Under the pieces are notes generated by a model. That model was not told where the DNA came from. It was given only the letters and a program-made list of their open reading frames with translations, and made no database searches. The position numbers and the translations under genes are program-made. Shown here one piece after another: positions 17,207 through 17,930 of a stretch of DNA of 21,243 nt. Source of the DNA: a virus (taxonomy: Duplodnaviria; Heunggongvirae; Uroviricota; Caudoviricetes); the IMG/VR virus record IMGVR_UViG_2698536657_000004, positions 1 through 21,243 of that record; one strand, 5' to 3'. Numbering within the stretch: the first letter of the stretch is position 1; each line of letters opens with the position of its first letter.

Positions 17207-17337
17207 TATCCGCGCCACGCCCGGCGCATATCAACCACAGAGCCTTTCGGGGGTGAGCTTACGGAGTGGTCAGTGTGACTTTCTCTGTGGGCAGATCGCT
17301 CCCGGGCGTTGGCTCACCCACCCAAAGGAACGTCACG

Positions 17338-17769
17338 ATGTTTGGTATTTTCAAAAAGAAAACCCGCAGAGCAGCAACGGAAATTAAAAAGTTTGAGAAA
17401 CGCGATCTGGCACAGGCGGTGATTAATGCTGCCTACCTGGTGGCCTATGCAGATGGTGAATGTGAGGCTTCAGAGAAAGCGAAGATCGAACAGGTATTAC
17501 GTAACCAGCCTGCGTTGTCCGCGTTTACGTCAGAAATTAATGCCATCAGTGCCACGATCACAGGTCAGCTTGACACCAACTTTAAAATTGGTCGTCGTGC
17601 AGCATTACGTGAGATCGAGGATGTGAAACACGATACGCGTGAAGCGGAAGATGTACTGGATGTGGCGGTGGCCATTGCTGAAGCGGATGGTGAAATTGAG
17701 CCGGAAGAGCGTAAGGTTCTGGAAGAGATCGCCGGTGTTCTTGGCCTGCGACTGGAGAACCACCTGTGA
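17338..17769 (+). CDS. TerB-like (tellurite-resistance TerB family) protein, 143 aa
   Basis: Two acidic ADG-containing helices (LVAYADGECEASEKAKIEQVL and AVAIAEADGEIEPEERKVLEEIAGVLGL); start placed at ATG 17338 with SD aagga, the track ORF starts at an upstream GTG. Confidence 0.7.
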   Translation: MFGIFKKKTRRAATEIKKFEKRDLAQAVINAAYLVAYADGECEASEKAKIEQVLRNQPALSAFTSEINAISATITGQLDTNFKIGRRAALREIEDVKHDTREAEDVLDVAVAIAEADGEIEPEERKVLEEIAGVLGLRLENHL

Positions 17770-17930
17770 CGGTAAAACTGCGTCTGGCCGCTGTGGCGCT
17801 TCTGCTGTTTCTGGTGGTGATGGTGGATTTCACCAGCAGGATCATGTCGGTGCTGGCGGATGGCGTGCTGGTGGTCGGCATTGTGGTGGTGCTTTTTCCT
17901 TTGGTGAAAAAGGACATGCCAGGTAGTTAG
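17766..17930 (+). CDS. Hypothetical small hydrophobic protein (54 aa, two predicted TM segments), below the ORF-track cutoff
   Basis: GTG start overlapping the TerB-like stop (GTGA) with SD ggaga 8 nt upstream; sequence VTVKLRLAAVALLLFLVVMVDFTSRIMSVLADGVLVVGIVVVLFPLVKKDMPGS. Confidence 0.35.
   Translation: MTVKLRLAAVALLLFLVVMVDFTSRIMSVLADGVLVVGIVVVLFPLVKKDMPGS

Follow-up and report, generated by a model that had tools for sequence, protein, structure and literature searches.

A conserved leader ahead of a known tciAB gene pair at the stx2AB position of a lambdoid prophage

What does a TerB-like protein do in the late region of a phage, and what governs the expression of its gene? The question is raised by a 21,243-nucleotide stretch of DNA (IMG/VR virus record IMGVR_UViG_2698536657_000004, positions 1 to 21,243; hereafter the window), which gene order and library matches identify as a lambdoid, Shiga toxin (Stx)-phage-like Escherichia coli prophage, and in which a gene for a TerB-family protein is overlapped by a gene for a small hydrophobic protein. 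An earlier note, made from the letters alone, had suggested a lysis-timing, stress-signalling or defence function for the two, and had pointed out an inverted repeat in the 5' untranslated region. The pair is already known: it is homologous to tciA and tciB of phage P1, corresponds to PHROG 632 and PHROG 1470, and is annotated by the Prokaryotic Genome Annotation Pipeline (PGAP). The new part is the leader in front of tciA, and the protein pair belongs to a known gene family of modest interest. Comparison of related leaders establishes a set of conserved predicted helices, among them one that pairs with the Shine-Dalgarno (SD) sequence.

Conserved helices in the tciA leader

The leader is about 130 nt long, starts right after an intrinsic terminator and is near-identical in three left-hand contexts; the position ahead of it holds different terminators in other left-hand contexts. 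It is still 82-84% identical in nucleotide sequence in loci (Fostie, Citrobacter, Enterobacter and Pseudescherichia) where tciA is only 58-61% identical in nucleotides and 43-45% in amino acids. At locus L004, TciA is 99% identical and the leader only 83%, and the copy in an Erwinia jumbo phage also keeps the leader. A covariance model of this type of leader (type 1) scores the window leader at 185 bits. The leader is unannotated, yet present in 806 of 5426 complete E. coli genomes. Among the 4227 families of Rfam 15 there was no match at gathering score, with E-values up to 10 returning chance-level hits only, and a search of the literature on the leader and on rha/IHF control found nothing relevant.

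The inverted repeat is real. Its 5' arm, GGGTGAGC, lies at 17251-17258 as the earlier note had it; the 3' arm, GCTCACCC, occupies 17312-17319 and not 17311-17318, and a repeat search extends the match to 13 nt at 85%. The repeat had nevertheless been under-read, being the invariant core of a conserved, putatively SD-sequestering leader family. Support for the type-1 helices was drawn from an alignment of 29 distinct leaders, in which the repeat helix (I2, Table 1) shows about 95% pairing versus 36-62% with slid partners. On comparative grounds, the repeat is more than chance, because the helix is kept in these 29 leaders and compensatory changes are seen across leader types.

Taken together, helices P0, P1, P2 and I2 have 96.0% of alignment cells paired versus 38-52% when slid, and 7 pairs change on both sides versus 1.5 ± 1.0 in shuffles (0/500). 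When I3 is swapped in for P0, 92.9% of cells are paired, with one I3 pair being C-G in 15 sequences and U-A in 12. For I2 with its extension the paired fraction is 95.6%, position 17249 pairing with 17322 as A-U in 15 sequences and as G-C in 8. RNAalifold, run blind, recovers P0 and P1. A fold forced to hold the SD-covering helix has an energy of -54.2 kcal/mol, compared with -55.6 kcal/mol for the minimum free energy (MFE) fold and -46.4 kcal/mol for a fold forced to I3 and P1. The single-sequence MFE fold, which pairs GGGUGAGC elsewhere and lacks covariation support, was dropped for the comparative model. P1 and I3 close a loop that contains the 5' arm of I2 and leaves out its 3' arm, so that the helices represent either a pseudoknot or alternative folds.

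No sigma-70-like promoter was found between the terminator (17181-17201) and tciA in a scan of 17150-17340, and a promoter within the leader was rejected, manual inspection of both leader types giving poor matches only. PasA and PasC small RNAs (sRNAs) were also ruled out as the identity of the leader, since the Pas preprint puts them by holin genes, beyond the esterase gene. In P1, the region upstream of tciA (L003, about 2440-2475) has CACCGGGAAGCACCCGGCACC, which by eye resembles CACCGGGAGGCACCCGGCACC in the STnc100 gene of the window (18112-18150).

Leaders of the same architecture ahead of other genes

The type-1 covariance model also found second, divergent leader copies in the same prophages, ahead of another gene. 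A type-2 leader pattern matches at least 120 viral contigs, and 105 complete E. coli genomes also carry it, among them those of K-12 lab strains with phi80. The type-2 leader is nearly invariant, usually lies 3' of a terminator, and precedes at least a dozen unrelated open reading frames (ORFs), which encode mosaic proteins of about 300 amino acids ending in ..ALKPGGLLY, a GT2-like protein, small membrane proteins and others. In HK639 it has the major tail gene on one side and a hypothetical gene on the other, and in phi80 it is upstream of an N15 gp59-like ORF. Further leader types are found ahead of rha in phi80 and ahead of an antirepressor-like (ant-like) gene in E. coli (L001), and another variant occupies L195, 169-348. 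Henthorn and Friedman (1995) reportedly discussed conservation of the sequence ahead of rha in phi80 and P22.

The sequences of P0, I3 and P1 differ between the leader types, with the pairing retained. In the cross-type alignment A11, which is fitted to the model, 94.3% of cells are paired versus 79.7% after shuffling, and two-sided changes are seen in 14 of 18 pairs. As an alignment-independent check, I3 and I2 were excised at fixed offsets from sequence anchors. In the excised I3, 6 of 7 pairs changed on both sides, with a series running from TCGCACG/CGTGCGA through TCGTACG/CGTGCGA to TCGTACG/CGTACGA; the I3 variants are CGCCCGG/CCGGGCG, CGCTCGG/CTGAGCG, TCGCACG/CGTGCGA, TCGTACG/CGTACGA and TCTCACG/TGTGAGA. 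In the excised I2, 3 of 9 pairs changed on both sides, the outer pairs covarying across types. The two helices combined were 88.6% paired versus 26-47% when slid, with a covariation score of 0.427 versus 0.201 ± 0.017 in shuffles. The MFE fold of the type-2 leader itself consists of P0 and the SD-sequestering I2 helix.

The leader might instead be a DNA-level recombination linker only, in which the helices are incidental and have no RNA function. One leader fronts unrelated cargo, the histories of leader and coding sequence differ (as at L004, above), hybrid leaders (L057, L053 and L056) and truncated ones (L135 and L172) look recombinant, and a common junction motif trails the terminators. 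Yet two-sided changes leave the pairing of four helices intact, with I3 passing from C-G through U-G to U-A; leader types with differing helix sequences still have the same architecture, and the SD is covered by one helix in every type. We consider a linker-only role unlikely. A linker role alongside an RNA role is likely, because of the hybrid leaders and the differing histories of leader and coding sequence. At L135 (2226-2381), L172 (7976-8130), L123 (6959-7100) and L180 (9410-9550), the 5' half of the leader (P0, P1 and the I2 5' arm) is fused to unrelated sequence without the I2 3' arm and the SD; these truncated or hybrid leaders may be recombination remnants.

From comparative analysis alone, the leader appears to represent an RNA architecture that is widespread and unannotated, has the support of covariation, and stands ahead of interchangeable accessory genes of phages. 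With respect to a possible riboswitch, the comparison shows a conserved multi-helix, pseudoknot-type architecture and SD pairing, and the unrelated cargo is unusual for a metabolite riboswitch. We tentatively raise the possibility that it is the founding example of a portable phage riboregulator family, a pseudoknotted RNA of about 110-130 nt (P0, I3, P1 and I2) that would mask the ribosome-binding site, be opened by a cellular signal or a host factor, and serve as a plug-in adaptor and homology patch for cargo exchange. If the plug-in adaptor reading is true, lambdoid and some virulent phages reuse the leader for tciAB at the stx position and for rha, ant-like, N15 gp59-like and other genes. 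A functional riboregulator of this kind would be a widespread control element of phage accessory genes, and a handle on the expression and swapping of "moron" cargo at sites like the stx locus.

The TciA-TciB pair and its possible role

TciA is a soluble TerB-fold protein with two acidic motifs, encoded from the ATG at 17338 to the TGA at 17767-17769 (sequence and ORF list). In agreement with the earlier note, it matches Pfam TerB (PF05099) over residues 26-138 (E = 1.3e-16, 61.3 bits, cut-off 24.4); it also matches PHROG 632 over its full length (1.1e-69) and, by phmmer, TerB 2JXU over residues 14-137 (E = 9.4e-8). A twofold acidic A-x-A-D-G-x5-E motif is the defining mark of the TerB family. 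Both acidic ADGxxxxxE motifs are kept in TciA, and D39/G40/E46 and D117/G118/E124 are invariant across diverse homologues. The N-terminus is basic and conserved (MFGIxKKK). The AlphaFold2 model is all-alpha with 8 helices (predicted local distance difference test score 88.9), and a Foldseek search of the PDB returned 2H5N as the best match (probability 1.0, template modelling (TM) score 0.55-0.62) as well as 2OU3, labelled "tellurite resistance protein of COG3793", with weak E-values of at least 0.014. Weak similarities below cut-off were seen to DjlA (NCBIfam, 7.6e-7) and to DUF533/YebE (Pfam, 1.6e-5).

An N-terminal extension of tciA from the in-frame GTG at 17266 (167 aa) was ruled out by 1-nt indels among homologous leaders. 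Databases carry the pair in mis-called forms (P0121, P0125, P0133, P0141 and P0186), some being 189-192-aa TciA proteins that run into the leader and others 170-197-aa TerB-DUF3927 frameshift fusions, one of which is titled "zinc-finger family protein".

TerB works within the terZABCDEF cluster. No terC, terD, terE or terZ partner gene was found in the 21-kb window by family scans or in the ORF list, and a lone phage terB was judged an unlikely source of tellurite resistance in another study (PMC8421299), an argument that holds likewise here. Family membership does speak for a genuine tellurite-resistance determinant; with the other ter genes not in the window, we find this explanation hardly credible.

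The start codon of tciB, GTG at 17766-17768, overlaps the tciA stop as GTGA, and its ORF of 54 codons runs to 17930. TciB matches Pfam DUF3927 (PF13064; E = 3.2e-16, 59.5 bits, cut-off 25), its sole Pfam match at E ≤ 0.1, with no holin family among the hits, and PHROG 1470, "TciB-like", over residues 1-51 (1.4e-24). With a grand average of hydropathy of 1.58, hydrophobic stretches at about residues 5-20 and 26-46, DFTSR between them and K/R at both ends, the protein is as hydrophobic and two-segmented as the earlier note had described, which suggests an N-in/C-in helical hairpin. Ratios of nonsynonymous to synonymous substitution (Nei-Gojobori) of 0.06 for TciA and 0.27 for TciB show purifying selection on both genes. 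The TciB family is a small one: clustering at 50% identity gave 51 clusters in a set of 1.84 billion representatives, almost all 40-90 aa long.

Co-occurrence was assessed with hidden Markov models of both proteins against stop-to-stop translations of 122 loci, namely the window and 121 fetched loci (80 viral contigs, 30 species-level genome loci and 11 records from annotated genome/phage collections). TciA is present in 121 of the 122 loci, and TciB lies directly downstream on the same strand in 116 of these 121; the exceptions are PMBT3, Vibrio phage K480, L100, L105 and one truncated contig. Across 58 distinct junctions, the stop-to-start distance is -4 in 40, -1 in 11, -8 in 2 and 0 to +8 in 4, with one frameshifted outlier, so that 53 of 58 overlap. 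The small ORF and the overlap, which the earlier note had taken as translational coupling, are conserved well beyond E. coli. TerB-DUF3927 fusions were rejected as "Rosetta stone" evidence, since the candidates were either frameshift fusions (P0125 and P0186) or an unrelated chimera (P0251).

The compact overlapping layout, with a small hydrophobic protein second, is also what a toxin-antitoxin-like pair would show, with TciB as the membrane toxin and TciA as the upstream, coupled antidote. However, Pfam, NCBIfam and PADLOC gave no toxin-antitoxin family for either protein, virulent phages also carry the pair, and knock-down of tciA is tolerated in P1 (PMC10695390), making this a very improbable explanation.

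RefSeq PGAP labels the two as "tellurite resistance TerB family protein" and "DUF3927 family protein", likewise with a 4-nt overlap. By tblastn, copies 97-99% identical are present in PPyecE_EH1910 and JLK-2012, annotated as TciA/TerB-like or tciA/tciB, and P1-type phages carry a TciA that is 42-52% identical. The pair occurs in 1111 of 5426 complete E. coli genomes (about 20%), in 3065 places with up to 8 per genome, and O157:H7 strains have several tciAB copies each. It is present in P1, lambdoid phages, an Erwinia jumbo phage, the N4-like phage Pollock and Pseudomonas Nickievirus. A Pfam scan of the neighbours of 28 species-level loci found all of them to be prophage-like and of several kinds: Q upstream with holin/lysozyme downstream; P2/186-like CI, CII (CP76), integrase and gpA; DnaB/ban (P1-like); and primase-helicase. 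The varied prophage contexts and the virulent-phage copies therefore point to a self-contained accessory module, untied to lysis genes and mostly within lytic-cycle transcription units. In otherwise unrelated phages, tciAB and phage tRNA genes are often only a few hundred bases apart, as in P1, JLK-2012, the Erwinia jumbo phage, Pseudomonas ZY21 and several prophages (L003, L005, L006, L010, L093, L106, L114 and L116). The names tciA and tciB (tellurite/colicin resistance or cell-division inhibition) were given on homology alone, even though the late-operon slot is the same as that of Shiga toxin. The importance of the protein pair is chiefly one of bookkeeping.

These contexts bear on the lysis-timing function suggested in the earlier note, in which TciB would be pinholin- or antiholin-like and TciA a cytosolic regulator tuning the downstream holin. 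TciB has two transmembrane segments and basic ends, as do class II holins, and lambdoid copies sit between Q and the holin/endolysin genes. The explanation is weakened because the pair is also found away from lysis genes, in the P1 ban operon, in P2/186-like early regions, in the N4-like phage Pollock and at the starts of Erwinia jumbo phage genomes; TciB has no holin family match, and P1 knock-downs plaque normally (PMC10695390). We regard lysis timing as improbable.

A protective or exclusion module, resembling a ter phenotype, would act at the inner membrane to stop superinfecting phage or pore-forming colicins, or would counteract an abortive-infection response of the host. TerB homology and the rationale of the P1 names would fit, as would a moron slot that takes host-affecting cargo such as stx. 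The tciABC operon is a variable region of P1-like plasmids whose role was called unclear by the authors of that study, who raised the possibility of phage inhibition (PMC9603915). There was no credible match in PADLOC-DB 2.0, however, where TciA gave only a partial one, to PDC-S48 (E = 0.0022, 35 residues), and TciB none. TerC, TerD, TerE and TerZ partners are lacking in the window, no lysogen-type promoter was seen in the scan of 17150-17340, and the copies in strictly virulent phages speak against a purely lysogenic-conversion role. A protective role seems to us rather doubtful.

Our own reading, held with middling confidence, is that the locus is a mobile three-part accessory cassette (leader, tciA and tciB) in a Q-dependent late operon, in the slot of stx2AB, with the following proposed mechanism of expression and membrane action. 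The cassette would be transcribed by terminator-resistant, Q-modified late transcription, like stx2, and would act in lytic growth rather than in the quiescent lysogen, which fits the finding of the pair in strictly virulent phages and in the C1-repressed P1 ban operon. P1 tciABC is transcribed in P1vir infection (bioRxiv 10.64898/2025.12.28.696737). The leader would keep the ribosome-binding site of tciA shut until it is opened or cleaved, and would thereby set the timing and amount of TciA and of the coupled TciB; the candidate openers are RNase III, which would attack the long quasi-continuous helix, some condition of the cell, and a host factor. TciB would probably be the membrane partner or tether of TciA, with the pair constituting a split version of membrane-anchored TerB-domain proteins. 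The site of action of TciAB would then probably be the inner membrane, and its target the homeostasis of ions/metals or of the envelope in the infected cell, and not tellurite resistance itself.

Several observations weigh against the cassette mechanism. CRISPR interference knock-down of P1 tciA, tciB and tciC had no plaque phenotype (PMC10695390), and the tciABC operon has been lost in about half of one P1 subgroup (PMC9603915). The literature gives no experimental function for TciA or TciB, the P1 names being "by homology" only. The phage TerB genes of PMBT3, Vibrio K480, L100 and L105 have no TciB downstream, no genuine TciA-TciB fusion is found among the 1.84 billion representatives, and it is from synteny and coupling alone that we infer a physical interaction of the two proteins. 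The leader was absent from P1-like and P2-like tciAB copies in a covariance-model search; TciAB function therefore does not require it. Within the leader, five natural variants have an uncompensated U-to-G mismatch in I2, and the single-sequence fold z-score is only -1.9. The covariation counts are inflated by relatedness, the cross-type alignment is fitted to the model, and the high conservation of the leader could come in part from recombinational spread.

The variable slot and comparison with known systems

In an alignment with the Stx2a phage LC567842, homology ends at 16622, past the tRNA terminator, and restarts at about 17965, at the sRNA gene; window positions 16623-17964 are therefore the exact place of stx2AB. 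The order of Q, methylase, three tRNAs, cassette and NanS-p-like esterase (Table 1) also upholds the phage late-region location given in the earlier note. The STnc100 sRNA gene is full-length (RF02076, 157 bits), lies outside the cassette as its neighbour immediately 3' of tciB, and has been kept by Stx2 phages too, 3' of stx2B. A connection between STnc100 and the PasD prophage sRNAs is drawn in a 2026 preprint.

Table 1 Features of the window, helices of the type-1 leader and further members of the leader family
Feature	Position	Strand	Basis or remark
Integrase, DnaB-like helicase	early part of window		protein family matches
DUF968	directly ahead of Q in listed gene order		protein family match
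Q antiterminator	14265-14672		protein family match
DNA methylase	15225-16283		Pfam
Three tRNAs	16324-16573		between methylase and tciAB cassette
Intrinsic terminator after tRNA cluster, with junction motif TTTTTTATATCTGCG	16586-16622	+	left slot edge; terminator scan; LC567842 alignment
Two small ORFs, 74 and 69 aa	16663-16887, 16940-17149	+	PHROG 2571, PHROG 4280, no function given
Intrinsic terminator (stem 17181-17201 and T run), abutting leader	17181-17206	+	terminator scan
Structured 5' leader of tciA, type 1	17207-17337	+	conservation and covariance model
Helix P0, hairpin GCGCC-ACGCCC-GGCGC	17212-16 with 17223-27	+	3/5 pairs changed on both sides
Helix I3, long-range, P0 loop	17218-17224 with 17302-17308	+	6/7 pairs covary across leader types
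Helix P1	17235-17242 with 17283-17290	+	3/8 pairs covary within type 1, 7/8 across types
Hairpin P2, enclosed by P1	17268-17272 with 17276-17280	+	29-leader alignment
Helix I2 core (repeat of the earlier note)	17251-17259 with 17311-19	+	29-leader alignment
I2 extension	17249-50 with 17321-22; anti-SD CCUUU 17243-47 with AAAGG 17324-28	+	SD AAGGA 17325-29
tciA, 143 aa	17338-17769	+	Pfam TerB, PHROG 632
tciB, 54 aa, GTG start	17766-17930	+	Pfam DUF3927, PHROG 1470
Right slot edge (about 17965) and STnc100/PasD-family sRNA gene (17996-18208)	17965-18208	+	LC567842 alignment; Rfam RF02076
NanS-p-like esterase	downstream of STnc100-family sRNA gene		Pfam
Leader family members	L109 6464-6605; L095 7435-7568; L242 2484-2620 (HK639)		usually just after terminator (both rows)
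Leader family members	L243 375-544, 1978-2120 (phi80); L001 12388-12557		cargo in both rows: rha, antirepressor-like and N15 gp59-like genes

The 74-aa and 69-aa ORFs, located 3' of the tRNAs and 5' of the tciA leader, form a separate sub-cassette with its own terminator; other prophages have a toxin-antitoxin-like pair, or nothing, at this position. The motif TTTTTT(A/G)TATC(T/C)GCG (window 16606-16622 and 17202-17214; L004 and L005) trails terminators that are unrelated to one another, coincides with the points at which phage-to-phage homology begins or ends, and looks like a recurrent recombination joint. In the early region, tandem isrK and C4-antisense RNA pairs at 7679-7867 and 8338-8526 (+ strand), about 660 nt apart (Rfam, 59-83 bits each), look like a duplicated P1/P7-type c4-ant immunity element.

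The closest known system is P1 tciA-tciB(-tciC) (Lobocka et al. 2004 annotation; GenBank AF234172), whose TciA and TciB are 42% and 43% identical to the window proteins. P1 TciB likewise has 54 aa and shares the motif VDFTS..SVLxDG..WP.lK, both pairs belong to PHROGs 632 and 1470, and the stop/start overlap is TGATG in P1 and GTGA in the window. In both phages tRNA genes lie close to the pair, and a DNA methyltransferase gene is found at a greater distance upstream. Unlike P1, the window has no tciC-like third ORF after 17930 in the ORF list; TciC is not conserved, as no alignment to P1 TciC was obtained for the candidate third ORFs of other phages. P1 in turn is without the type-1 leader, and its pair lies in the C1-controlled early ban operon, downstream of the ban promoters, whereas the window pair lies in a Q-dependent late operon.

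Klebsiella TerB (terZABCDEF, 2JXU) resembles TciA in Pfam family, length and all-alpha structure. The ter cluster does not have the 54-aa partner found in the window, where in turn TerC, TerD, TerE and TerZ are not adjacent. The best fold matches of TciA are other TerB-like proteins (2H5N and 2OU3), with TM-scores of only 0.45-0.62. DjlA and YebE/DUF533 are membrane-anchored TerB-domain proteins that combine a transmembrane segment and TerB in one polypeptide. Like them, the window pair would place a TerB-like domain at the inner membrane, with the similarity to TciA being weak and below cut-off, and it would do so with two coupled genes in place of a single polypeptide.

The stx2AB cassette has flanks identical to those of the tciAB cassette, with the tRNA cluster and terminator on the left and the STnc100-family sRNA and nanS-p on the right. 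Late transcription is Q-dependent for stx2AB and presumably so for tciAB, and the cargo is unrelated. A leader ahead of stx2A was considered and rejected, as 28 nt stand there in place of the leader core of about 99 nt, and a terminator and an SD-like stretch are the only common features.

SD-sequestering leaders are known from the phage Mu mom/Com leader, RNA thermometers and pseudoknot riboswitches, and RNase III hairpins occur between T7 genes. The window leader is likewise a structured 5' leader with a putative long-range helix over the ribosome-binding site, situated between cistrons of a long phage transcript. Unlike these systems, it lies outside the 4227 families of Rfam 15, and its architecture is reused ahead of many unrelated cargo genes.

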